From Vulcanimicrobiota bacterium (GTDB taxonomy: Bacteria; Vulcanimicrobiota; Vulcanimicrobiia; Eremiobacterales; Eremiobacteraceae): a stretch of DNA of 54,305 nucleotides. Of the stretch, positions 40,293 through 51,679 are shown piece by piece; the first letter of the stretch is position 1, and every line of letters starts with the position of its first letter. The notes below the pieces were generated by a model. It did no database searches. It was not told where the DNA came from and was given only the letters and a program-made list of their open reading frames with translations. A program made the position numbers and the translations under genes. Location: NCBI GenBank assembly GCA_019237415.1, contig JAFAHD010000007.1, positions 1-54,305 of the forward strand. The letters run 5' to 3'.

Positions 40293-40312
40293 GCGCGTTC
40301 GTTGAAACGCGC
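40293..40312. terminator. short hairpin (GCGCGT-N8-ACGCGC) between the convergent MFS and M48 genes
   Basis: A 6-bp inverted repeat read directly in the 23-nt gap. It touches the M48 stop codon and has no U-tract. Confidence 0.2.
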
Positions 40313-42204
40313 TACTTGAGCTTGTGGGGCTTGTCGATGTAATCCTGATACATCAAGCCCTGCGCGATCTCCATGGATTCGGTGAGCAGGCCGCGCGCGA
40401 GCGCCATATCTTCGCACGTGTCGCCGGTCGCCTGTTCCTGCGCCAGGATCTGGTCCACCGGCTGCTTCGTCTCGTACGAGAGCCACGCTGCGCAGCTGAT
40501 CTCGCCCGGCGCGACGCCACCGCGCATCGCACTCGCGTAGTCGGGCGTGGTCACGCCGGAGAACCGGTAGGCCATCGCCTTGCGGAACCAGTCATAACGG
40601 CCTTGCGACGATGTCAGGTCGAGCAGCGTGATGCGCGCAGACAGCCAGCGGCTTTGTGCGGCATACAGCTCGTCATTCGCCTGCAAGGCCATCGCCTCGA
40701 CCCCGTCCCATGCGTTTTCGGCCTTGTCGAGCGCCGCGCGCACGCGGGGCATGTCGGCGGGCTTGATGTCGCCTGACGTCGTGTCGATCGTGTCCAGCAC
40801 GACGAAATACTCTTTCAGCGCGGCCAGGCTATCGGACGCCGCCGACACCGCGCCGCGAGAACGATCGACCGCGCGCGCGACCTCGTCCGACGAGGTGATC
40901 ATCTGCGCGGTGATCGTCGGGTAGTACGACATCAAGGTCTGGTTGCCGGGTGTCTGCGCGTTGTCGATCAAGCGCTGGCCCATCTCTGTGAGCAGCGACT
41001 GGTTTTCGCCATACAGCATGTTCGCCTGCGACATCGTGTCTGCGGTCAGACCGAGCATGCCGTTGATGTCGACCACCATCTTGTCGAGCGCCGCGGTGGC
41101 CTGCGCCAGGTTGTTGTTCGGCGTCTTCGGAGTGCCGAGATTCGGCACCTCACTCGAGAACGAGTGCAGCTGCGTATACAACGACTCGGCGTCGCGGTCG
41201 CCCCAATGCTCCTGGTCGCGCGAGATCGCGGCGTCGTCCTTGGTGATGTTGAGCGCTTGCTGGATCAGCGCGGCGGTCGAAGAACGCCCGGCGGGGTCGA
41301 GCTCGAACGCGAATGCCATCGTCGAGCCCGGCGGGGCGTGCATGCCCGTATCCTTGAGCGCGATGACCAATCCGTTGGTGTGCTCGCTCGCGAGCGTATC
41401 GCTGGGCTGGATCCGCAACGCTTGGGCGAAGCGGTCGTACGAATAGGAAAAGCGGCCTTCTTCTTCGTCGTGGATCGCATCGGCCGTGATCTGCGCCGCG
41501 CTTGGGTTATCGAGCTGCGGATAGCCCTCCAGATGGGCGATCCGATCGCTCGGCGGCGGATGGTTCTCGAACGCCGCGTCAGCGCGGCTCTCCGGTCCCG
41601 ACATCTGGCGCAGCTCATCCATGAAATCGACCATTGACTGCGGGTCGTAACCGGCTCGCGCCATCAATTGCAATCCATACTGGTCGGCTTGCAGTTCGTC
41701 TACGCGCGAAAACTTGTTCATCGCCAAGTCGCCGCCATAGCCGCCGAGCAGCGAAGTGAGCGGGAGGATCGAGAGCACGCCGATGAGGACGCCGAGGATC
41801 TGACTCTTCTCCTCGAGCGTCACTGCATGGCGGCGCTCGACGTGCCCGATCTCATGCGCCATGACGGCGGCCAGCTCGTCGTCCGAAGACACGGTGTTGA
41901 GCAGCCCCATGTCGACGTGCACGAAACCGCCGGGCAGTGAGAACGCGTTGATCTCGTCGGAGTTGATGATGCTGAACGTGTAGTTGATGTCCTCGCGCGC
42001 GCGATACTTCGCGAGGTTGTTGCCGATGCCGGTGACCCAGTTGGTGAGGAAGGGGTCGTCGACCAGCAAACTCTGGCGGTCGACCTCTTTCGAGATCGCC
42101 GCGCCCTTGGATATTTCGGTGGCCGTGCTCATCGCGGAAGCTGTGAGCGGTGCCGCGATGTTGAGGATGAGCGCCACGAGCACGGCCGTGGCGACCGAGC
42201 GCAT
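40312..42204 (-). CDS. secreted M48-family zinc metallopeptidase with about 400-aa uncharacterised C-terminal extension
   Basis: The signal peptide is MRSVATAVLVALILNIAAPLTASA. The HExxH site is AAVMAHEIGHVERRH, followed by ELQADQYG. The remainder is helical with no recognised family. Confidence 0.8.
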   Translation of the reverse strand: MRSVATAVLVALILNIAAPLTASAMSTATEISKGAAISKEVDRQSLLVDDPFLTNWVTGIGNNLAKYRAREDINYTFSIINSDEINAFSLPGGFVHVDMGLLNTVSSDDELAAVMAHEIGHVERRHAVTLEEKSQILGVLIGVLSILPLTSLLGGYGGDLAMNKFSRVDELQADQYGLQLMARAGYDPQSMVDFMDELRQMSGPESRADAAFENHPPPSDRIAHLEGYPQLDNPSAAQITADAIHDEEEGRFSYSYDRFAQALRIQPSDTLASEHTNGLVIALKDTGMHAPPGSTMAFAFELDPAGRSSTAALIQQALNITKDDAAISRDQEHWGDRDAESLYTQLHSFSSEVPNLGTPKTPNNNLAQATAALDKMVVDINGMLGLTADTMSQANMLYGENQSLLTEMGQRLIDNAQTPGNQTLMSYYPTITAQMITSSDEVARAVDRSRGAVSAASDSLAALKEYFVVLDTIDTTSGDIKPADMPRVRAALDKAENAWDGVEAMALQANDELYAAQSRWLSARITLLDLTSSQGRYDWFRKAMAYRFSGVTTPDYASAMRGGVAPGEISCAAWLSYETKQPVDQILAQEQATGDTCEDMALARGLLTESMEIAQGLMYQDYIDKPHKLK

Positions 42205-42208
42205 GAGG

Positions 42209-42730
42209 CTAGCCTTTGTCGATCGCGGCGAGATTACCCTTGAGCTCGTCCGGCGTCATGAATCCGCGCTCGATCTTGCGCACGACGCCGTCCTTGTCGA
42301 TGAAAAAGCTCCACGGCAATGAGTGCACTTCGTACGCGTCGGCAAACGATCCGGGATCGAGCGCGACCTGATACGTGATGCCGAACCTCTTCAGGAACGG
42401 GGTCACAAGCTCGGCGTCCTCTTGCTCGTCGACGCCGAGGAAGACGACCTGATCCTTGTACTGCGGATACGCTTTCACGATGCCGGGCAGCTCAAGCTTG
42501 CACGGCGGACACCAGGTGGCGAACGCGTTGATGAACACGGGCTTGCCGCGGAGCTGCGCCAGGGACACGGTCTTGCCATCGATGTCTTTGAGCGTCAGCG
42601 CCGGCGCGGGTTCTCCGACGGCCACGCCGCGCCCGCCGCTGCGCTGATCGCCGTGCGGCGCACCGGCTTGTCTTGCGCAGCCGCCAAGCGTCATCGCAAC
42701 GCATAGTAAGAAGAAGAAACTCGTTCGCAT
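42209..42730 (-). CDS. TlpA/ResA-like thiol:disulfide oxidoreductase lipoprotein
   Basis: The lipobox is LCVAMTLGGC. The thioredoxin active site is FATWCPPCKLE, within a thioredoxin fold. Confidence 0.85.
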   Translation of the reverse strand: MRTSFFFLLCVAMTLGGCARQAGAPHGDQRSGGRGVAVGEPAPALTLKDIDGKTVSLAQLRGKPVFINAFATWCPPCKLELPGIVKAYPQYKDQVVFLGVDEQEDAELVTPFLKRFGITYQVALDPGSFADAYEVHSLPWSFFIDKDGVVRKIERGFMTPDELKGNLAAIDKG

Positions 42731-42731
42731 G

Positions 42732-44624
42732 CTACGCTCCGGCCGCCGTCAGGATCAGGTCGGTGCCTAGGCCGAGGATGAAGCCGAGGAACACGCCGAC
42801 CGTCGCGAGTTCCTTGTGACCCACCCTTCCTCCGGCTTTGGTCATCTCGCCGATAACGTAGATGATCGCGCCCGCCGCGAGCGTGAGGAACAGCACGGAG
42901 AGCGTTGGCGACACGAAGCGATAGCCGATCACGGTGCCCAAGAACGTCGGGCCGCCGCCGATCAACCCGAGCATCAAGATCTCGCGCCACCCGACGTGCG
43001 CGTCCGAGCCGACGAGGGGCGCAGCGATGCCGAAGCCCTCGGTCATATTGTGCAGGCCGAAGCCGATGATGAGCAGCACCGCGAGCCCGATCGCGCCGGT
43101 TGCCGCAGATTGGCCGATCGCCAAACCTTCGCTGAAGTTGTGCAGGCCGATTCCGAGCGCGATCGTCGTCGCCAACGCCATCGGGCTGAGCATGCCGCCT
43201 TCGGCGACCGCCGCGCGCTGGCGGGCGAGGACGAAGCGCGAGAAATAGACCAGCCCCACCAGGCCGGCGAACAAGCCGGCGACGTAGACGAACGTGAGCC
43301 AGGCGAACGGCGCGGCGCCCAGTCCCTGCTGCATCTTACCGAGCGCATCGACGACCGGTTCGCCCGCTTGGCGTAAGATGTCGAACAGCAAGAAGAACAG
43401 CACGCCGATGGCGATCGCATTCGCGAACGCGATCCAGCGGCGCGACACGCCGCGCATCGCGGCGAACGGCAAACCGAGGAAGATCGTCAGACCGGCGATC
43501 GCGCCGAGGACAAGCGTCGCGCCTTGCGACATCTTCGGCCCGGTCGGCGCGGACTCGCCTGCGGCCGCCATCATGTCCATCGCCGCCATGCTCGCGAAGC
43601 GGTCGGGCGTGCCGGCATAGTGGATCGCGCTGATCAACCCGCCAGGCCCGTGGTCGTCATTCATCATGTGATCCGCGACGTGGCAGTGGAACATCCAGGT
43701 GCCGGGCTGTGCGTCGGCGACGAATTCGATATCGCGCGTCTCGCCCGGCCCCAGCGTGATCGTGTCCATCATCTGCCGCTGGGCGGGCGCGACGGGCTGG
43801 CCGTCGTACGCGACCACTTGGAAGTGGTGCCCGTGCGTATGCATCGTATGGAACTCGGTGCCGCTGATGTCGATCTCGCGCACGCGGATGCGCTGGCCGC
43901 GCACGACTTCGAAGGGCTTGCCCGACGGGTAGCTCTTGCCGTTGATGCTGAAATAGTTCTCCGTGCTGCTGTAGATCTTCCACGAGGAGATCAACATCAG
44001 GTAGTCGCGATCCGGCGGCGGGCCAGCCGGCGTGGCCGGCTCGACGACGACGGCGCCGTACAGGCCGCGGTCGAGCTGATTGAGGTCGTCGACGTGCGTG
44101 TGATAGATGTACGTGCCGGGCTGGCGCACGACGAACTGATATACGAAGCTCTGACCGGGCGGCACGGGCGGCTGGCTAAAACCCGGCGTGCCGTCCATCG
44201 CGGCCGGCACATCCATGCCGTGCCAATGTATCGTGGTCGGCGCGGGCAGATGATTGGTGAAGATGACGCGCAGCGTGTCGCCTTGTCGGACATGGATCGT
44301 CGGACCAGGCACCGTGCCGTTGTACGTCCATGCATCCACAGTGGTGCCGGGCGCGGGCGTCCACTTCTTGACTTCGGCGACGAGATGCAGCGTCGCGATC
44401 GGGCCGCTCGAGAGCGGCGGAAGCGACGGCAGCAGCGCGTAGTCGCGCTGTGCATCGGCTTCTGCTTTGGCGACGGCGGCCGGCGTCACGTCTGCGGCGA
44501 CCGGTCCTGGGAGAGCGTGCTCGAGGGCGTCGGCGCGCGCTTGCACGGCGAACGCGGCACCGGAGAGCGCGACGGCGGCGACTGCGATGCTGGCGGCGGC
44601 GAGCCGTCTGATGGACTGCTGCAC
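42732..44624 (-). CDS. fusion protein: secreted two-domain multicopper oxidase + C-terminal ZIP-family metal permease
   Basis: The N-terminus has an RR-containing signal, MQQSIRRLAAASIAVAAVALSGAAFA. Copper ligand motifs are HWHG, YHTHVDD, HTMHTHGHHF and HCHVADHM. After about aa 365 there are about 8 TM helices with LHNFSEGLAIG and LHNMTEGFGIA, which are ZIP/ZupT signatures. It is a single uninterrupted 630-codon frame. Confidence 0.8.
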   Translation of the reverse strand: MQQSIRRLAAASIAVAAVALSGAAFAVQARADALEHALPGPVAADVTPAAVAKAEADAQRDYALLPSLPPLSSGPIATLHLVAEVKKWTPAPGTTVDAWTYNGTVPGPTIHVRQGDTLRVIFTNHLPAPTTIHWHGMDVPAAMDGTPGFSQPPVPPGQSFVYQFVVRQPGTYIYHTHVDDLNQLDRGLYGAVVVEPATPAGPPPDRDYLMLISSWKIYSSTENYFSINGKSYPSGKPFEVVRGQRIRVREIDISGTEFHTMHTHGHHFQVVAYDGQPVAPAQRQMMDTITLGPGETRDIEFVADAQPGTWMFHCHVADHMMNDDHGPGGLISAIHYAGTPDRFASMAAMDMMAAAGESAPTGPKMSQGATLVLGAIAGLTIFLGLPFAAMRGVSRRWIAFANAIAIGVLFFLLFDILRQAGEPVVDALGKMQQGLGAAPFAWLTFVYVAGLFAGLVGLVYFSRFVLARQRAAVAEGGMLSPMALATTIALGIGLHNFSEGLAIGQSAATGAIGLAVLLIIGFGLHNMTEGFGIAAPLVGSDAHVGWREILMLGLIGGGPTFLGTVIGYRFVSPTLSVLFLTLAAGAIIYVIGEMTKAGGRVGHKELATVGVFLGFILGLGTDLILTAAGA

Positions 44625-45379: not shown

Positions 45380-45395
45380 ATTAGATAAGCCTAAT
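45380..45395. promoter_or_regulatory. AT-rich inverted repeat ATTAG-ATAAGC-CTAAT abutting the dtxR-family start codon; candidate operator
   Basis: 5-bp perfect arms in an otherwise GC-rich divergent intergenic region. The left half, TTAGATAAGCCTAA, partly resembles the IdeR/DtxR box TTAGGTTAGSCTAACCTAA (about 12 of 19). Confidence 0.3.
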
Positions 45396-45541
45396 TCGCT
45401 GCTTTAGGCGAGCTTATCCTCTCGGGTAAGGCTGTCCTTACGTCCAACTGTGACGACCGGCCGCGCCGTGGGGATAAGGAACATGGAGAAACACTTCGTG
45501 AGCTTCCCTACGTTTCTAGTGCCAGGGGGTACTAAACCGAT

Positions 45542-46027
45542 ATGACACATTCCAAACTCATCGCGGCCGGGCTGCTCGGCGCCTTTTTGCTCGCCACGAC
45601 GCCCGCGCCCAGAGCGCTCGCGGACGGCGCCGCCAGCACGCGCAACATCTTGCTGGGCGTCGGCGCAGCGGCTGCGACGCTTATCATCATCAACCACAAC
45701 AAGAAGGTCCACGAGAAGTACGCCGAGGACGCCCAGAAGCAGGCCGCCCTCGCGGAGCAGCGTGACGACGCGCAAGCCGCAGCTGCCCAATACAAGAAAG
45801 CCTATCAGGAGCAGCTCGCGACCTCGAACGAGCTCAAGAAAGAAGTCGCAGTCCAACAACAGCAGATCAACGGACTGAAACAGGAAGTGGCGGCGATCAG
45901 CCCGCCGGGTTCGTCCTTCGTGGCTGCCAAGCCGGCGGTGGCCGTCACGCAGCGGTCGACATCGTCGCATACGGTCACCGCGGTGGTGCCGACGCAGGTC
46001 GTCTCGTACGGGTGGGGCACGTTTTGA
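45542..46027 (+). CDS. secreted coiled-coil protein, unknown function
   Basis: The signal peptide is MTHSKLIAAGLLGAFLLATTPAPRALA. A Gln/Ala/Lys-rich heptad region follows (AQKQAALAEQRDDAQAAAAQYKKAYQEQL...QQQQINGLKQE). Confidence 0.5.
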   Translation: MTHSKLIAAGLLGAFLLATTPAPRALADGAASTRNILLGVGAAAATLIIINHNKKVHEKYAEDAQKQAALAEQRDDAQAAAAQYKKAYQEQLATSNELKKEVAVQQQQINGLKQEVAAISPPGSSFVAAKPAVAVTQRSTSSHTVTAVVPTQVVSYGWGTF

Positions 46028-46401
46028 AGACGTATAGCCGGCTGGCCGTCGCGGTCGCGCTTGCCGCAGCCCTCGCGGGCTGCGCGCAGATGCGCCCCAA
46101 CGATCCGCAATCCGTCGCGAGCAGCGTCGCGCAATCGCTGTACAACAACGACTACAACGGCACGATCGCCAATTTCGACGACACGCTCAAGTCTCAAGCG
46201 ACCAGAACCCAAGTCGCGATGGTCTCCGACAAGATGCACGCGCTCGGCGACTATCAGGGCCTGACGCTGACCAAGAGCGATGACGACACGCGGCGCTACT
46301 GGTTCGACGCCAAGTTCAGCAACGGTGACATGACCGTCGAGCTGCGCTTGCACGCAAACGGCCAGGTTGCGGCGTACCGTCTCCTGCCGAAGACGTCCTG
46401 A
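46012..46401 (+). CDS. small lipoprotein, unknown function
   Basis: The lipobox is LAVAVALAAALAGC. The start is GTG 46012 or TTG 46024, overlapping the upstream stop. There is no recognisable catalytic motif. Confidence 0.55.
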   Translation: MGHVLKTYSRLAVAVALAAALAGCAQMRPNDPQSVASSVAQSLYNNDYNGTIANFDDTLKSQATRTQVAMVSDKMHALGDYQGLTLTKSDDDTRRYWFDAKFSNGDMTVELRLHANGQVAAYRLLPKTS

Positions 46402-46402
46402 C

Positions 46403-47212
46403 CTAGAACGCGGGTCCGCGCGCTTCGCGCGCGGACCACGCGAACGTCCACGCGAACACGATCAACAGCGCGGCGACGAGCAGGCCGCTCACCGCGATGT
46501 CAGGGATCGGCGAAGTCCACCCCAGCAACTGCGCGAGCTCATAGCCGCCGACGGCGATCGCCAGTCCCGTAACTGCGTAGATCCATATCCGCGTCGCGCG
46601 TACCAGCTCGAGCGGACTCCGCGTGCACAGGCGGTGCACGAGCAGGCTGTCGAGCGTGTCGGTGACCGTCATCCCGAGTGAGAACGACAGCCCGATGAGC
46701 GCGCCGAGTGCGATGCCGCTGCCGGCTGTGAGCGCCAGCGCATACGTCGCGACTTGGCTGCTCGTGTCGAAGCCGAGGCCGAACAGCAACCCTATCGGAA
46801 TGGCGGCCAGCGGACTGGTGGCCGCGCGCAGCGAGCGCGGCAGCAGCGCGGTCTTAAATCCCGCGGCGGTCGCAGTCCGGTTCAGCGCCAGTTGACGGAT
46901 GTTGAGGGCCGCGATCGCGAACAGCGTCACGATACTCACCCACGTGCCGATCGTCTCGAGCAGCTGTCCGTGCAACGCGAGACGAGTGCCGAGCAGACCG
47001 GCGAGCGCCGCGATCGACAGCACCATGATGGAGTGGCCGCCGGCGAAGAGCGTGCCGACGAACCGGCTCAGCCGTTCTTTGGCTCCCAAGCTGTTGCGCG
47101 TGAGATTGTCGATCGCCGCCAGATGATCGGGATCCGCGCCATGGCGAAGGCCGAGCACGAACACCGTGAACGCGATGACACCCACCGACAGCGGCGCGCC
47201 GTGCGCGATCAT
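46403..47212 (-). CDS. NiCoT/NicO-family nickel/cobalt transporter (HoxN/NixA-like)
   Basis: GLRHGADPDHLAAIDN is the H-x4-D-H NiCoT signature in TM2. The protein is polytopic, and its start overlaps the upstream stop (47209-47212). Confidence 0.85.
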   Translation of the reverse strand: MIAHGAPLSVGVIAFTVFVLGLRHGADPDHLAAIDNLTRNSLGAKERLSRFVGTLFAGGHSIMVLSIAALAGLLGTRLALHGQLLETIGTWVSIVTLFAIAALNIRQLALNRTATAAGFKTALLPRSLRAATSPLAAIPIGLLFGLGFDTSSQVATYALALTAGSGIALGALIGLSFSLGMTVTDTLDSLLVHRLCTRSPLELVRATRIWIYAVTGLAIAVGGYELAQLLGWTSPIPDIAVSGLLVAALLIVFAWTFAWSAREARGPAF

Positions 47213-48789
47213 GACACTCCTCTATCCAACAGCGGTGCATGCCGGTGGGCATGCGTATGACCTGGGGCGCTCGCATAACCGGCAATGGCAGCGAGCGCCA
47301 GCGCGGTGACCGCGAACGACGGCATGTGCAACATCGAGGCGCTCGCTCCCTGGCCGATCATCGCCGCGCCGACGCACGCGATGACCGCGGCTGAGACAAG
47401 CGGGCCGTACCGCACGACGGCGGCGAAACGCGGGCGGTCTGAAAGCCAAGCCGCGCCGCGGACCAGCGCGACCCCGAGGCCGGTGAGCACCGCAGCGAGC
47501 CCGACGCTGAACGCCACGATGACGAGCAACCCGTAGCCGACCCGATGGAGCGTGAGCGCGGTGAGCAGCACGACGAGCGCCGCCGGACAGGGCGCGATGT
47601 TGCCGCTCATGGCGATCAGCAGCACGCTGCGAAACGTCAGCGGCGCGGTCCCCGGAGGGACATGTGTGTGACCTTCCGAGCCATGCGCGTGCGCGTGCGT
47701 GCCCGCGTCGTCATCGCTGTCGTGCGCGTGATGGTGGCCGTGCGCGTGTCCTTCACCCCGCCGCGCGCGCATGTAGCGCGCGAGCGCGCTTGCGCCCAAC
47801 GCTGCGACCATAAGACCAGACGCAAGCGTGATCCACGGATACACGTGTTCCGGCACGATCCATTGCGCGGCACCGAGCAGAAGCAAACCCAGTGCGAGCA
47901 CGCCCGCAGTGTGCGCAAAGGTCAGGCCGGTGGCGAGGATGAGCGCTTGGGTCGCGGTTGCGCGCGCGCCCACCAACGAGACTGCGAGCAGCGTCTTGCC
48001 ATGGCCCGGCTCGAGCGCATGCAGCGCGCCGAGTCCGGCTGCCATGCACAGGGTGAGCAGGACGACCCACGGATCGGCCGCGCCTTTCGCGAGCATGTCG
48101 GCCAACGTGTTCGAGCGCAGCTGCGACGAACTGCCCGCCGGCGCTTCGTCGGAACCTTCGAGCGCGACGCGCGAAAGCGTTCGACCGCGCGCGTCGAGCG
48201 TGAGAAGCACGCCCGCGATGTGGCGGGGCGACCCGAGGACCGCGCTCGGGTAGCTGCGCAGCTCGTTGGTCGGCTCGCGTTCGGGCGCGACGACGACGTC
48301 TCGCCAGCCGATCTTCTCGGGATAGACGGCGTCGCGGATTTCGATGCGGCGCGGCGAGGCCGCGGCCGGCAGCGCGGCGCGAAACTCATCGACCCAGTAC
48401 AGCGTGGGCAGCCCACCTGCGCCCGGCCGCGTGCTCGCGCGCGCCACGCCAGGCACGAGCCGCAGCGGCGCGCCGTTCGCGCTCACGTGCAGCCCGCCCG
48501 CGACCACGCCGGCTTCATCGCGCGCCCAACGCTCGAGATCGGCGTCGCGCTGCGCACCTTGGATGCCGCGTTCGCGCATGATCTGGAACGTCGGAATCTC
48601 GGCGATGTCGAGGACGTACTTCATGACGATCGAGCGCGCGTTCACGTTTGCCTTCGTCAGATGATTGATGGTGAAGTTGCCCAACGGATGCGCGCTTGCC
48701 GGCGCCGCGCACGCACCAATGAGGCCGAGCGCGAAGAGCGTAGAGCGCAAGCGCAGCCGCCATGGCGGCCGTTTGGGGTCAATCGCCAT
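47209..48789 (-). CDS. RcnA/NicO-like nickel/cobalt transporter fused to an about 230-aa N-terminal periplasmic domain
   Basis: There is a signal peptide, then AHPLGNFTINHL... in the periplasmic domain. The membrane part has LHALEPGHGKT and the His-rich loop GHAHGHHHAHDSDDDAGTHAHAHGSEGHTH. Confidence 0.8.
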   Translation of the reverse strand: MAIDPKRPPWRLRLRSTLFALGLIGACAAPASAHPLGNFTINHLTKANVNARSIVMKYVLDIAEIPTFQIMRERGIQGAQRDADLERWARDEAGVVAGGLHVSANGAPLRLVPGVARASTRPGAGGLPTLYWVDEFRAALPAAASPRRIEIRDAVYPEKIGWRDVVVAPEREPTNELRSYPSAVLGSPRHIAGVLLTLDARGRTLSRVALEGSDEAPAGSSSQLRSNTLADMLAKGAADPWVVLLTLCMAAGLGALHALEPGHGKTLLAVSLVGARATATQALILATGLTFAHTAGVLALGLLLLGAAQWIVPEHVYPWITLASGLMVAALGASALARYMRARRGEGHAHGHHHAHDSDDDAGTHAHAHGSEGHTHVPPGTAPLTFRSVLLIAMSGNIAPCPAALVVLLTALTLHRVGYGLLVIVAFSVGLAAVLTGLGVALVRGAAWLSDRPRFAAVVRYGPLVSAAVIACVGAAMIGQGASASMLHMPSFAVTALALAAIAGYASAPGHTHAHRHAPLLDRGVS

Positions 48790-48908: not shown

Positions 48909-49721
48909 ATGAATTCTCGAATGCTAACGGTCGCGGGTGCCGTCGCGATCGCCGCACTGGCCGGCGCCGTCGTCTTGTACGTCGCTCACCCGGTACGCGG
49001 CTCCGACCACCAAGACTCCCCGACGGTCGTCAACCGCCCCGCAGCGGATATCACCGACGTCTTCGTGTATCAGGCGCCCGACAACTCGAGCAACGTCGTG
49101 CTGCAGATGGATGTGTGGCCGCTCATCACGCACGGCATGTTGTCGATGACCGCGCTCGATCCGTCGGTCATGTATCAATTCAAGATCGATAACACCGGCG
49201 ATGGAATTGAAGACCTCGTCGTCCAGCTGCAAGCGACGTCGAGCGGCGTCGGACAGTCGATCAACGTCTACGGACCGGCCAAACCGGCGCTGACGGGCAC
49301 GAACTCGGTCTTCATCGCGCAGACGGGCAGCGTGCCGTTCAATCAGGCGGCAGCAAGCGTCACGCCGTTCGCCAACGGCATGAAAGTGTTCGTCGGCCCG
49401 ACCAAGGACCCGTTCTTCTTCGACCTGCTGCAGTTCTTCAACATCATCCCCGACCGCTATTACGGATGCCATGGTTTCCCGAACGCGTTCAACGTGCCGT
49501 GCGGCGGCGCCACCGCGGGCAGCTTCAACGGCTTCACCAACGCGTTCAACACGCTGCACGGCACGAGCTGCATCGTCGCGACTCCATCGTCGGACGCGCT
49601 GTCATCGCATCAGTTCAACGTCATCGCGATCGTCGTCGAGATGCCCAAGGCCTTGCTGCTCAACGCCGCGCATCCCGTCATCGGCGTGTGGGCGACGACC
49701 AGCACCATTTCCGGATCATAG
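48909..49721 (+). CDS. DUF4331-family secreted protein (corresponds to the N-terminal half of typical family members)
   Basis: GGAGG lies 6 nt before ATG 48909. A signal/TM segment is followed by GSDHQDSPTVVNRPAADITDVFVY...YQFKIDNTGDGIEDL...GPTKDPFFFDL. I recall these as the SSHREAP...D.TD.Y.F...D.dGDg...DpFF.DL blocks of DUF4331. Confidence 0.7.
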   Translation: MNSRMLTVAGAVAIAALAGAVVLYVAHPVRGSDHQDSPTVVNRPAADITDVFVYQAPDNSSNVVLQMDVWPLITHGMLSMTALDPSVMYQFKIDNTGDGIEDLVVQLQATSSGVGQSINVYGPAKPALTGTNSVFIAQTGSVPFNQAAASVTPFANGMKVFVGPTKDPFFFDLLQFFNIIPDRYYGCHGFPNAFNVPCGGATAGSFNGFTNAFNTLHGTSCIVATPSSDALSSHQFNVIAIVVEMPKALLLNAAHPVIGVWATTSTISGS

Positions 49722-49735
49722 GAGGAACAGCGATC

Positions 49736-50341
49736 ATGCGTATCACTTCCGCCGCCATCCTCACGGTCGCCCTCGCGGCCCTGGCCGGTTGCAGCAGCGG
49801 CACCACGTCGACCGTCAACGGGCAATCGCAATACCAACAGATCGAGCGTCTTTCGCGCCCCGCGATCAAAGAGGCCTTCGAGAGCTTCGCCAATCACGAC
49901 ACGACGAATCGCAGCGCGCCGACGAACGACTCACAGCTGCAGACGTCGATCCAGACGTTCTTGGGGCCGCCGCCCAACGGCGTCGCCAACCGCAGCGCAG
50001 CGACGACGAACTTCATCGTCGGCGTGCTCATCCCGGACGAGATGCAAGCCGACCTGAGCGTCAACGTCGCCGGGTGCAGCACGGCGAACACGCCGTGCGC
50101 GGCATACCTCGGCCATGAGACGGGCGGCGCGACCGGCACGACGTTCGGCGGACGGTGGCTCAACGACGACACGATCAAGACGTCGCTGGGCATCATCTTC
50201 GGCAATACGGTCTCTGCGCTCGGCGGCGCGCCGGACGATCACGCAGAGTCGTGGTGCCTCACGGACGACAACCTCTCCAACGGCGAGGGCGCGTTCCAGA
50301 CCTACAGCGCGACCTTCCCGTACGTCAACGCGCCCTACTAA
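49736..50341 (+). CDS. lipoprotein resembling the C-terminal half of DUF4331 proteins
   Basis: AGGAGG precedes ATG 49736. The lipobox is LAALAGC. ERLSRPAIKEAF..NRSAPTNDS and GGRWLNDDTIKTSL resemble the distal DUF4331 blocks. Confidence 0.55.
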   Translation: MRITSAAILTVALAALAGCSSGTTSTVNGQSQYQQIERLSRPAIKEAFESFANHDTTNRSAPTNDSQLQTSIQTFLGPPPNGVANRSAATTNFIVGVLIPDEMQADLSVNVAGCSTANTPCAAYLGHETGGATGTTFGGRWLNDDTIKTSLGIIFGNTVSALGGAPDDHAESWCLTDDNLSNGEGAFQTYSATFPYVNAPY

Positions 50342-50356
50342 GAAGGAAGAGATCCG

Positions 50357-51679
50357 CTGAACGCGCGGACGGTCCTCGGCATCGCGGCGTGCGCCCTCGT
50401 GGCGCTCGCCGCATGGCCATTCCTGCGGGCGGGCGCCATCTCGCGTGCGGCGGCAGCTGCGCCGACGCCGGCGCCCGTCGTGGCGGATTACCGCTACCGC
50501 AACGGCATGATCGGGGATCTTGAACGGCTTGCCGCTCGCCATCCGGATCAGCTTGACGAGCACATGCTCGCGGTGCAGTACCTGCAGCGCTATCGCGAAG
50601 CGCCGGACACGGGCGATCTGTTGCGCGCCGTCGCCGCCGCGAAGCGTTCGTTGCGCTACCAGCCGCGCTACAACGTTGGCGCCGAGACGGCGCTGGTCGG
50701 CGCGTACACCGCGCTGCATCAGTTCCGAATGGCCCAACATTATGCAGTGGAGGTCGCCCATTGGATGCCGTGGGATCCTGGCGCGACCGGCACGCTCGCT
50801 TCGTTGGACATGGAGCTCGGTCAGTACGATGCCGCCGGGAAGCTGCTGAGAACCCCGTTCGCTGGGCGCACTGGTGCATCATGGGATACGGTGAAGGCCC
50901 GCTACGAAGAGCTGACTGGAGACCTCGCCGGCGCGCGCGCACACATCGACCGCGCACTCTTGGATATCGATTCGCGCGTCAACGAACCGGCGGAGATCCG
51001 CGCTTGGTATCATTGGCGCGCGGGCGAGCTCGCATTTGCGGCCGGCGACTTGGCGGGCGCGCATTCCGCGTATGAGGCGGCGCTGGACATCTTCCCAGGA
51101 TACTGGCACGCGAACAACGGTCTCGCTCGGCTCTACTGGTCGCAGCGCCGATGGTCTGATGCACTGGACGCTGCAGACAAGTCCGCCGATGTTTATCCGT
51201 TACCCGAAACGCTCGGATACAAGGCGGACGCGCAGCGAGCGCTCGGCGATGTCGCAGGCGCGCAGGCCACCCAGGACCTTATTTCAGTCATCGAGCGGCT
51301 CGGCAACTTGCAGGGCATCAACGACCGGCTTATCGCGTCATACGACAGCGAGCATGGGATCGAGCTCGATCACGCGGTAGCGGTCGCGCGCCGCGATCTG
51401 TTGGTGCGCGACGACATCTTCGCTGAAGACACGCTCGCCTGGGCGCTCGCGATGGATGGACGTTGGCGCGAAGCGCTGCCGCATGCGCGCAACGCTGCAT
51501 CGCTGGGAACGCAAGACGCCCGTCTGCTGTTCCATACCGGCCTGATCGAGTTGCGCAACGGTTTTTCCGATGACGCACGGCGACACCTCGCGCAGGCGCT
51601 CGCGCTCAATCCGTCATTCCATCCCGTCTACGCAGGAGAAGCGCGCGAGGCGCTTGCGCGTCTTACGGCGTCACCGTGA
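50357..51679 (+). CDS. TPR-repeat protein with N-terminal signal/TM segment; start inferred at CTG
   Basis: The track start is GTG 50399, in the middle of a hydrophobic segment. In frame upstream, LNARTVLGIAACALVALAAWPFL completes a signal/TM helix, and AAGAAGGAAGAG lies 5-6 nt before CTG 50357. Multiple TPR-like repeats follow. Confidence 0.65.
   Translation: MNARTVLGIAACALVALAAWPFLRAGAISRAAAAAPTPAPVVADYRYRNGMIGDLERLAARHPDQLDEHMLAVQYLQRYREAPDTGDLLRAVAAAKRSLRYQPRYNVGAETALVGAYTALHQFRMAQHYAVEVAHWMPWDPGATGTLASLDMELGQYDAAGKLLRTPFAGRTGASWDTVKARYEELTGDLAGARAHIDRALLDIDSRVNEPAEIRAWYHWRAGELAFAAGDLAGAHSAYEAALDIFPGYWHANNGLARLYWSQRRWSDALDAADKSADVYPLPETLGYKADAQRALGDVAGAQATQDLISVIERLGNLQGINDRLIASYDSEHGIELDHAVAVARRDLLVRDDIFAEDTLAWALAMDGRWREALPHARNAASLGTQDARLLFHTGLIELRNGFSDDARRHLAQALALNPSFHPVYAGEAREALARLTASP

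Follow-up and report, generated by a model that had tools for sequence, protein, structure and literature searches.

The gene described here lies on contig JAFAHD010000007.1 of a Vulcanimicrobiota bacterium of the family Eremiobacteraceae (assembly GCA_019237415.1); the 54,305 nucleotides analysed are referred to as the window. In a single open reading frame (ORF) it encodes a secreted multicopper oxidase (MCO) covalently fused to a ZIP-family metal permease. The predicted order of parts is a signal peptide, a two-cupredoxin MCO, a methionine-rich linker and an eight-helix permease resembling ZupT and MntT. We consider the protein very probably a real, functionally coupled oxidase-ZIP importer module under the control of a DtxR-family repressor. 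To a preliminary description made from the letters alone, our analysis adds a DtxR-type operator, two independent origins of the pairing, and its spread.

That the fusion is genuine follows from the reading frame, the domain searches and the conservation of the arrangement. The ORF begins with a GTG codon 8 nt past the stop of the upstream gene, and all motifs reported earlier are found in its translation (SIRRLAA, HWHG, (Y)HTH, HTMHTHGHH, HCHVADHMM, HNFSEGLAIG and HNMTEGFG), among them the four copper-ligand motifs. A search of 5.8 billion proteins, with homologues clustered at 90% identity, yielded more than 110 clusters with the order MCO-then-ZIP (the forward fusion); these are 50-90% identical to the window protein, equal in length and composed of the same four Pfam families. 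A genome scan with one genome per species finds the forward fusion as a single ORF in about 45 species of Eremiobacterota. Because the architecture is conserved across dozens of independent assemblies, projects and technologies, we reject the explanation that it is an assembly or annotation artefact, i.e. two adjacent genes merged through a lost stop codon or a frameshift, for which the preliminary description had asked to be checked. The linker pattern is conserved as well, and complete genomes of cultured strains carry a fusion of reversed order as one ORF, so that the probability of an artefact appears practically negligible. No split version, with MCO and ZIP encoded by neighbouring genes, occurs among 38 stand-alone ZIP loci. 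In three loci from long-read metagenome-assembled genomes (MAGs; L039, L041 and L043), apparent frameshifts split the MCO part, which tblastn recovers as overlapping pieces in more than one frame; the most likely cause is homopolymer errors of nanopore-based assemblies, rather than decay into pseudogenes. The protein P0125 (63% identical), a candidate stand-alone ZIP, was rejected as such, being a fusion truncated at a contig end, and P0213, a seeming stand-alone ZIP, is probably a fragment.

The AlphaFold model, computed with 60 homologues (mean pLDDT 83.5), starts with a helix, continues with two beta-sandwich domains and ends in eight long helices. Both cupredoxin matches, Cu-oxidase_3 and Cu-oxidase_2, lie far above their gathering scores (Table), which settles the suggested Pfam check of the oxidase part. 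Domain 1 supplies trinuclear-cluster ligands H133/H135 (HWH) and H175/H177 (HTH) and has no cysteine; domain 2 supplies H259/H262/H264 (HxxHxH) and H313-C314-H315...H319, the last within a D318-H319-M320-M321 stretch. These eleven histidine and cysteine ligands are 99-100% conserved in 115 forward fusions and, together with both HNxxEG motifs of the permease, invariant or nearly so across 111-115 homologues, in which much of the remaining sequence does not vary either. The best sequence matches of the oxidase part are small MCOs, and the nearest folds according to Foldseek are the trimeric two-domain MCOs 3gdc, 3g5w, 2zwn and 7rab.

In the alignments, mgLAC and the Nitrosomonas blue copper oxidase (BCO) show HCH in the first domain and HDH in the second, where the fusion has HTH and HCH, respectively. 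The type-1 cysteine thus falls in domain 2, and the predicted type-1 copper site is therefore of the SLAC-like type-B arrangement; its domain adjoins the tether that runs into the ZIP part. In the fusion alignment an axial methionine is absent at the canonical +11 position, which is occupied by a Pro/Gly region, and M320 and M321 are candidate axial ligands. Five further residues (D185, E222, N223, S254 and D318) are conserved in forward and reversed fusions alike and rare in 58 unfused relatives; D318, which sits directly before the type-1 ligand H319, with M320 and M321 behind it, occurs in 16% of the latter. The resulting HCHVxDH recalls the HCHVTDH of ceruloplasmin, where the aspartate aids Fe(II) binding, and CueO binds Cu(I) by methionine and aspartate patches beside its type-1 site; we take both comparisons as leads only. 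Since two-domain MCOs assemble their trinuclear cluster between the subunits of a homotrimer, the fused oxidase would, by analogy, probably trimerise. A variant of the copper motifs is seen in P0123, a ZIP-first protein of 620 aa known from a single short Logan contig: QCH replaces HCH in the fourth motif, with the loss of one type-3 histidine, which could mean that the trinuclear site is a variant one, that the copy is decaying or that the sequence is in error.

Oxidase and permease are joined by a linker of about 28 aa (26-30) among the homologues, with a median of three methionines; methionine makes up 10.6% of linker residues vs 3.1% overall. The recurring pattern is M-x3-4-D-x-M-x-M, and M...MGGxSHGSH in the clade from Baltobacteraceae. 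Such a methionine-rich set is a typical assembly of Cu(I) ligands.

What is more demanding is the assignment of the C-terminal part. Its Pfam Zip match of 28.2 bits lies under the gathering score of 35.1, and the NCBIfam ZupT score of 47.8 compares with an equivalog cut-off of 252. Yet the ZIP assignment holds despite the sub-threshold Pfam score: the ZupT alignment runs end to end (aa 370-616 to positions 8-256 of 266, E 1e-12), structures of Bordetella BbZIP align across the full core (E about 1e-4) with both metal-site motifs in register (HNLPEG and QDVPEG in BbZIP), and eight C-terminal helices are modelled. Two family relatives exceed the Pfam cut-off, namely P0122 (38.0) and the protein of Alicyclobacillus acidiphilus (36.8). 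By sequence, the permease is a divergent member of the ZIP family, not a non-member. The motifs H495-N496-x-x-E499-G and H525-N526-x-T-E529-G occur without exception in relatives of both kinds, fused and stand-alone, and a comparison of the two sets revealed no ZIP residues specific to fused forms. A Pfam search of the fusion protein gave no match to FTR1 (PF03239). It is known that ZIPs import Mn, Fe and Co besides Zn (PMC9334652).

The preliminary description had asked how a protein with a Tat-like signal and a polytopic C-terminus is exported. The topology proves coherent: a signal peptide, an outside oxidase and then the first transmembrane helix (TM1) fit a ZIP of N-out/C-out topology, whose loops after TM1, TM3 and TM7 are rich in Arg/Lys. 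Because both ZIP termini are extracytoplasmic, the oxidase faces outward in whichever order the domains are joined. The Tat-like character of the signal does not stand as a general feature. The window protein has the twin arginine, which is found in only 35 of 111 homologues, is lost in orthologues more than 80% identical (P0003, P0004 and P0005) and is missing from the entire Baltobacteraceae clade; Tat export as a conserved trait was hence rejected. Reversed fusions are without any N-terminal signal, and a twin arginine before TM8, as in a Rieske-like Sec/Tat hand-over, was seen among them in A. acidiphilus only and is not conserved. As the twin arginine is not conserved, insertion by Sec and the signal recognition particle with periplasmic copper loading is more likely, being simpler than Tat.

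The named hosts among the forward clusters are Eremiobacterota/Vulcanimicrobiota. The species found by the genome scan divide into one clade from Eremiobacteraceae (63-84% identical to the window protein) and one from Baltobacteraceae (Cybelea, Tumulicola, Rubrimentiphilum and Lustribacter; 45-52%); a forward fusion is also found in a MAG labelled Candidatus Acidoferrum. Clustering at 50% reduces this architecture to two representatives, i.e. it is phylogenetically compact. A dedicated search for the reverse order, ZIP then MCO, recovered at least 62 full-length clusters across several phyla. P0122 and P0123, too, have this order, and single ORFs of this kind occur in A. acidiphilus NBRC 100859 (L056, 5974..7788, 604 aa) and a Deinococcales MAG (L064, 578..2530); cultured hosts also include A. 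cellulosilyticus, Aneurinibacillus soli, Kyrpidia spormannii and K. tusciae, and further hosts include a Deinococcus plasmid, Actinoallomurus and Candidatus Methylacidithermus. The search for the same architecture that had been proposed thus finds it widely, and the fusion is not peculiar to the window. The remark of the preliminary description that no account of such a fusion had been seen still stands, as a full-text search of the literature library found no paper on an MCO-ZIP fusion; the architecture already sits in public databases, cultured genomes included, under generic names ("multicopper oxidase domain-containing protein", "ZIP zinc transporter", and automatically "manganese oxidase" for ZIP-first proteins).

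In a rough neighbour-joining tree of the ZIP domains, forward and reversed fusions form separate clades with stand-alone ZIPs between them; identity to the window ZIP domain is about 50% for stand-alone ZIPs and about 41% for reversed-fusion ZIPs. Because the stand-alone members divide the two fusion clades, the tree indicates that the pairing of MCO and ZIP arose at least twice. This repeated origin in opposite orders is the strongest argument that both parts work together. Relatives from this two-domain MCO clade have other partners as well: at the N-terminus the unrelated membrane domains DUF4396 (P0178, 659 aa) or DUF2231 (P0208, 567 aa), and in P0129 the N-terminal domain of a copper amine oxidase. 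Oxidases of this clade have thus been tethered to the membrane repeatedly.

Copper is the commonest theme near reversed fusions, but not a universal one. On the Deinococcus plasmid the gene is part of a metal island that also encodes a copper storage protein (Csp), two P-type ATPases (CopA-like), a CopZ-like protein and CsoR, together with CDF, ArsR and another ZIP. In the Deinococcales MAG, genes for a response regulator, a histidine kinase and a DUF305 protein come after it; cyanobacterial CopM belongs to the DUF305 family. The A. acidiphilus gene adjoins DUF302, SHOCT and a three-domain MCO, and that of A. soli a cadCA-like pair and a divergent FTR1-family permease of 500 aa (AP017312.1, L089, 5038-6540), the only such case seen. 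The MCO domain of A. soli could be the ferroxidase for this neighbouring permease.

Regulation of the forward fusion appears to depend on a predicted DtxR/IdeR-type operator. The coding strand of this 14-bp palindrome reads TTAGGCTTATCTAA; it ends 1 nt before the ATG of the repressor gene and is the sole match to TTAGG-N4-CCTAA (at most one mismatch) in the window. The operator consensus is AATTAGGC-nn-GCCTAATT. A GCCTAA repeat lies upstream of the palindrome, at a distance that is constant among the aligned promoters of nine Eremiobacteraceae loci and most Baltobacteraceae loci. Counting sites within -200..+60 of the operon start, the operator is present in 34 of 35 forward-fusion loci without an adjacent repressor and in seven of eight with one, i.e. 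in 41 of all 43, and in 16 of 37 stand-alone ZIP loci; 60 of the 61 sites in 0.96 Mb of fetched DNA fall at these promoters. In Baltobacteraceae, where the repressor is not adjacent, the box directly precedes the fusion gene. It also stands in front of many orthologues of the ZIP that are encoded on their own in Chloroflexota and Actinomycetota, while no such box was found at reversed-fusion loci. The 19-bp IdeR box TTAGGTTAGSCTAACCTAA has four CCTAA repeats, and the spacing of the palindrome corresponds to repeats 1 and 3 or 2 and 4; IdeR boxes that overlap promoters mediate repression (PMC10317159). A scan for sigma-70 promoters found nothing, and terminator-like hairpins were no commoner than chance.

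The repressor is encoded directly upstream of the fusion, immediately and on the same strand in eight of eight Eremiobacteraceae loci, and the two genes are probably co-transcribed. It comprises a winged helix-turn-helix, a dimerisation domain and an SH3/FeoA-like domain, and its closest solved relative is IdeR of Mycobacterium tuberculosis (1fx7). The primary metal site, M30/C122/E125/H126, is that of IdeR (M10/C102/E105/H106); the ancillary site is degenerate, with Q99 and Y118 and the loss of two ancillary-site histidines, and the position of IdeR H98 is taken by G, Y or S among these repressors. MntR proteins have carboxylates or amides where IdeR has Met/Cys (PMC10317159). A DtxR-family gene also adjoins seven stand-alone ZIP loci, and five of these regulators carry Glu and Glu/Asp at the Met10/Cys102 positions, hence are MntR-like. 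As reported in the passage of PMC11933003 that cites Baumgart & Frunzke 2015, MntR of Corynebacterium glutamicum represses the ZIP gene mntT. Because of the shared box, the MntR-like neighbours and the mntT precedent, the ZIP subfamily looks like a DtxR-family-controlled Mn/Fe importer. The forward fusion, in turn, looks as if it had inherited DtxR-type control, with an Fe-type sensor in the window's clade. From the IdeR-like ligands and the promoter-proximal box, induction in iron shortage is predicted, and related ZIPs pair with MntR-like regulators. The earlier idea of Fe or Mn handling is thereby supported by a predicted operator and a repressor gene that is probably co-transcribed.

Of the models considered, the one that accommodates most of these observations is that of a redox-guarded importer, in which the oxidase protects the permease to which it is fused. 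The metal-loaded repressor, with its Fe-type Met/Cys site, would shut the operon, and the protein would therefore be made in Fe/Mn shortage. A trimeric oxidase cap may sit over three ZIP pores. The ZIP part would import a divalent cation, Mn2+ and/or Fe2+, like its stand-alone relatives; this is the simplest cargo, because the ZIP motifs are invariant and fused forms have no residues of their own. Using O2, the oxidase would oxidise redox-active ions at the pore mouth, and the transported species would not be created by it. Its main target may be Cu(I), caught by the Met-rich tether and the D-H-M-M patch by the type-1 copper, and Fe(II) may also be oxidised where the cargo is Mn2+. A ZIP of broad specificity could thus open while toxic Cu(I) is kept out. 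The abundance of methionine in the linker and the copper islands around some reversed fusions suggest Cu(I) oxidation at least as strongly as the logic of Fet3-Ftr1. It is possible, though by no means assured, that the fused oxidase gives the ZIP an O2-dependent redox choice of cargo, either as oxidative proofreading or as uptake only after oxidation; the specific guard mechanism we offer more tentatively still.

Several points weigh against the guard. Its activity, substrate and direction are predicted from sequence, and the protection of the pore by a tethered oxidase on kinetic grounds is conjectural. The trimer is taken from relatives only, the inter-domain pTM of the single-chain AlphaFold model being low (0.58). 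ZIP metal sites bind Cu(I) poorly, so that its entry may pose no real hazard, and oxidation of Cu(I) to Cu(II) could itself create a ZIP substrate. The methionine enrichment of the linkers could be compositional rather than functional, and reversed fusions mostly lack a comparable linker. The Fe-type sensor and the FTR1 neighbour in A. soli fit a ferroxidase as well or better. Finally, the neighbourhood of the Kyrpidia reversed fusions is uninformative, and the conserved neighbours in Baltobacteraceae (FAD monooxygenase, repeat protein, histidine kinase and others) provide no functional lead.

The parallel to yeast Fet3-Ftr1 drawn in the preliminary description would, in its strict form, make the protein a ferroxidase that oxidises Fe(II) at the type-1 site and hands Fe(III) to the attached ZIP, so that oxidation itself confers iron selectivity. 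The repressor, with the Fe-selective Met/Cys primary site of IdeR/DtxR (PMC10317159), the predicted derepression in iron shortage and the invariant aspartate before the type-1 histidine (HCHVxDH) are in agreement with this explanation, as is the FTR1-family permease beside the A. soli fusion; the 1:1 physical coupling, with its two origins, would suit the channelling of insoluble Fe(III). The permease, however, is a ZIP and not Ftr1, and has no REXXE-type motif. Its site residues match those of stand-alone relatives that work without an oxidase, seemingly under MntR control, and give no hint of a trivalent cargo; because the metal site is unchanged from such importers, an Fe(III) hand-off is weakened. 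We know of no ZIP that transports Fe(III); where ZIPs are known to take up iron, they carry Fe(II), the very ion that a ferroxidase would consume. Furthermore, the Met-rich linker and the copper-island contexts are left unexplained. Of the parallel, then, an oxidase physically joined to a permease stands, and the switch to Fe(III), although the main rival of the guard, is unlikely.

The transport direction could also be the opposite: the ZIP would release Cu(I) or Fe(II) along its gradient, and oxidation outside would bar the ion from returning, or it would move copper for the loading of the oxidase. For such an exporter or copper device speak the reversed fusions whose neighbours serve to export, store or sense copper, the methionines of the tether, and the well-established logic of CopA and CueO, in which export is followed by oxidation; moreover, BbZIP is reported to act as a passive electrodiffusion pathway in liposomes, so that direction could follow the gradient. 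The promoter-proximal box of the forward fusions, however, predicts repression at metal plenty, the opposite of what an exporter needs, which weakens this model. The close stand-alone relatives resemble MntR-repressed importers, a His/Asn/Glu site is ill suited to Cu(I), and to our knowledge all ZIPs characterised so far move metal into the cytoplasm; we therefore regard the explanation as very unlikely. It is likewise quite improbable that the parts are uncoupled, the ZIP only anchoring the oxidase or the fusion serving co-expression of independent parts. The partners of the same MCO clade (DUF4396, DUF2231 and the copper amine oxidase N-terminal domain) and the lack of ZIP residues specific to fused forms would fit this interpretation. 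Yet the same ZIP subfamily was fused at least twice, in opposite orders, its complete metal site is strongly conserved where a mere anchor would be free to decay, and D185, E222, N223, S254 and D318 are common to both orders and rare in unfused relatives.

The module can be compared with several known systems. It shares with yeast Fet3p-Ftr1p and algal FOX1-FTR1 an extracytoplasmic MCO coupled 1:1 to a metal permease; for the fusion, an iron-type starvation control is predicted. Fet3p-Ftr1p, however, consists of two proteins, an Ftr1 permease with REXXE and a three-domain monomeric oxidase, whereas the fusion is covalent, has a ZIP and carries a two-domain oxidase that is presumably trimeric. 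E. coli ZupT, C. glutamicum MntT (cg1623) and BbZIP (GufA-type) likewise have eight TM helices with HNxxEG in TM4/TM5, and MntT is under a DtxR-family repressor as well, MntR acting on mntT; all three lack the oxidase domain of the fusion protein. On the oxidase side, mgLAC (2zwn), the Nitrosomonas enzyme (3g5w), Arthrobacter 3gdc and Marinithermus 7rab have TM-scores of about 0.72-0.82 on the target at about 30% identity, and two-domain MCOs, including Streptomyces SLAC, share the two cupredoxin domains and the same eight histidine ligands of the trinuclear cluster. The type-1 cysteine lies in domain 1 of mgLAC and BCO (type C), but in domain 2 of the fusion, as in SLAC (type B); the named enzymes are soluble, whereas the fused oxidase is attached to a polytopic transporter.

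CueO of E. coli, which protects the periplasm through Cu(I) oxidation and has a Met-rich insert, resembles the fusion in its Met-rich segment and an aspartate near the type-1 site, and the reversed fusions in copper-resistance contexts add to this likeness. CueO, however, is a soluble, Tat-exported protein of three domains induced by CueR, while in the fusion the Met-rich stretch is an inter-domain tether, export is probably by Sec, and control is of the DtxR type. The IdeR/DtxR regulons of Actinomycetota share the Met/Cys/Glu/His primary ligands and a TTAGG/CCTAA operator overlapping the operon start. They differ from the present system in the operator, whose 14 bp correspond to two of the four repeats of the 19-bp IdeR box, in the lost ancillary site of the repressor, and in the host, here Eremiobacterota.

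Table. Position of the fusion gene, its parts, its control elements and neighbouring genes in the window.
Feature	Position	Strand	Remarks
MCO-ZIP fusion gene	42732..44624	minus	single ORF, 630 codons plus stop
Signal peptide, aa 1-31	44532..44624	minus	hydrophobic core and AxA motif; cleavage motif ARA followed by DA
Cupredoxin domain 1, aa 85-197	44034..44372	minus	Pfam Cu-oxidase_3, E 4e-41
Cupredoxin domain 2, aa 222-340	43605..43961	minus	Pfam Cu-oxidase_2 (aa 222-322), E 4e-31
Met-rich linker, aa 341-366	43527..43604	minus	DRFASMAAMDMMAAAGES...; between oxidase and TM1 of the ZIP part
ZIP permease domain, aa 367-630	42735..43526	minus	8 TM helices; H495-N-F-S-E499-G (TM4), H525-N-M-T-E529-G (TM5)
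DtxR/IdeR-family repressor, 248 aa	44633..45379	minus	directly upstream of fusion; Pfam Fe_dep_repress, Fe_dep_repr_C, FeoA
DtxR/IdeR-type operator (predicted)	45381..45394		14-bp palindrome
GCCTAA repeat	45404..45409	minus	upstream of palindrome
TlpA/ResA-like thiol-disulfide oxidoreductase lipoprotein	42209..42730	minus	CPPC motif; Pfam Redoxin/AhpC-TSA, NCBIfam ResA
M48 peptidase	40312-42204	minus	630 aa, secreted
Terminator-like hairpin	40293-40312		follows M48 gene
NicO-family genes	46403-48789	minus	two, overlapping; upstream of repressor
Coiled-coil-like protein and DUF3887-like lipoprotein	45542-46401	plus	161 aa and 129 aa; small secreted/lipoprotein genes
DUF4331 protein, then TPR protein	49466-51679	plus	291 aa and 426 aa

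Around the fusion gene, the window contains further genes of mostly narrow distribution. The start of the TlpA-like gene overlaps the stop of the fusion; its product is extracytoplasmic and could keep the single cysteine of the fusion (C314) reduced. Only the window and its closest relative, locus L007, have this gene downstream of the fusion. The M48 peptidase gene begins 4 nt after it, and the C-terminal stretch of about 400 aa of this peptidase has no family match; the gene is syntenic with the fusion in seven Eremiobacteraceae loci (47-75% identical), mostly with an acetyl-CoA synthetase gene between. Upstream of the repressor, the first NicO-family gene encodes an RcnA-like protein of 526 aa whose N-terminal part, about 230 aa, forms an extracytoplasmic domain and which has a loop rich in histidine (GHAHGHHHAHDSDDDAGTHAHAHGSEGHTH), and the second, whose start overlaps its stop, a HoxN/NicO-like protein of 269 aa. 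At this position the pair, too, is confined to the window and L007, as if it had been inserted into surroundings that are otherwise conserved. According to these distributions, the redoxin, the peptidase, which is separated from the fusion elsewhere, and the NicO pair were rejected as functional partners.

Divergent from the repressor, the genes for the coiled-coil-like protein and the DUF3887-like lipoprotein occupy the same place in the related loci L001, L007, L009 and L010; starting about 160 nt from the operator, they might share its regulatory region. The DUF4331/TPR pair lies between the NicO pair and a conserved adenosine deaminase/DUF1028 block and is absent there in L001 and L003.

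ZIPs are a principal pathway by which organisms from bacteria to humans acquire Zn, Fe and Mn, and their means of telling similar cations apart are poorly understood. Until now, coupling of an oxidase to a permease has been characteristic of the Ftr1 family, to which ZIPs are unrelated; the covalent, ZIP-based form appears to be new. Because the fusion arose at least twice, is widely conserved and, in its forward form, appears to stand under a DtxR-type metal-starvation switch, it suggests that redox reactions at the mouth of the pore are of importance in this ZIP subfamily. It also poses a structural puzzle, as an oxidase that is presumably trimeric by necessity is attached to a transporter that is usually dimeric. 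Both forms are tractable: the reversed one occurs in cultured Kyrpidia, Alicyclobacillus, Aneurinibacillus and Deinococcus, and the forward one comes with its own repressor and a 14-bp operator, in Eremiobacterota, a dominant phylum of peat and acid soils. If the proposed function is true, a redox-based choice of cargo would be a mode of metal selectivity new to the ZIP family, one that would have evolved at least twice and serve soil bacteria of several phyla.

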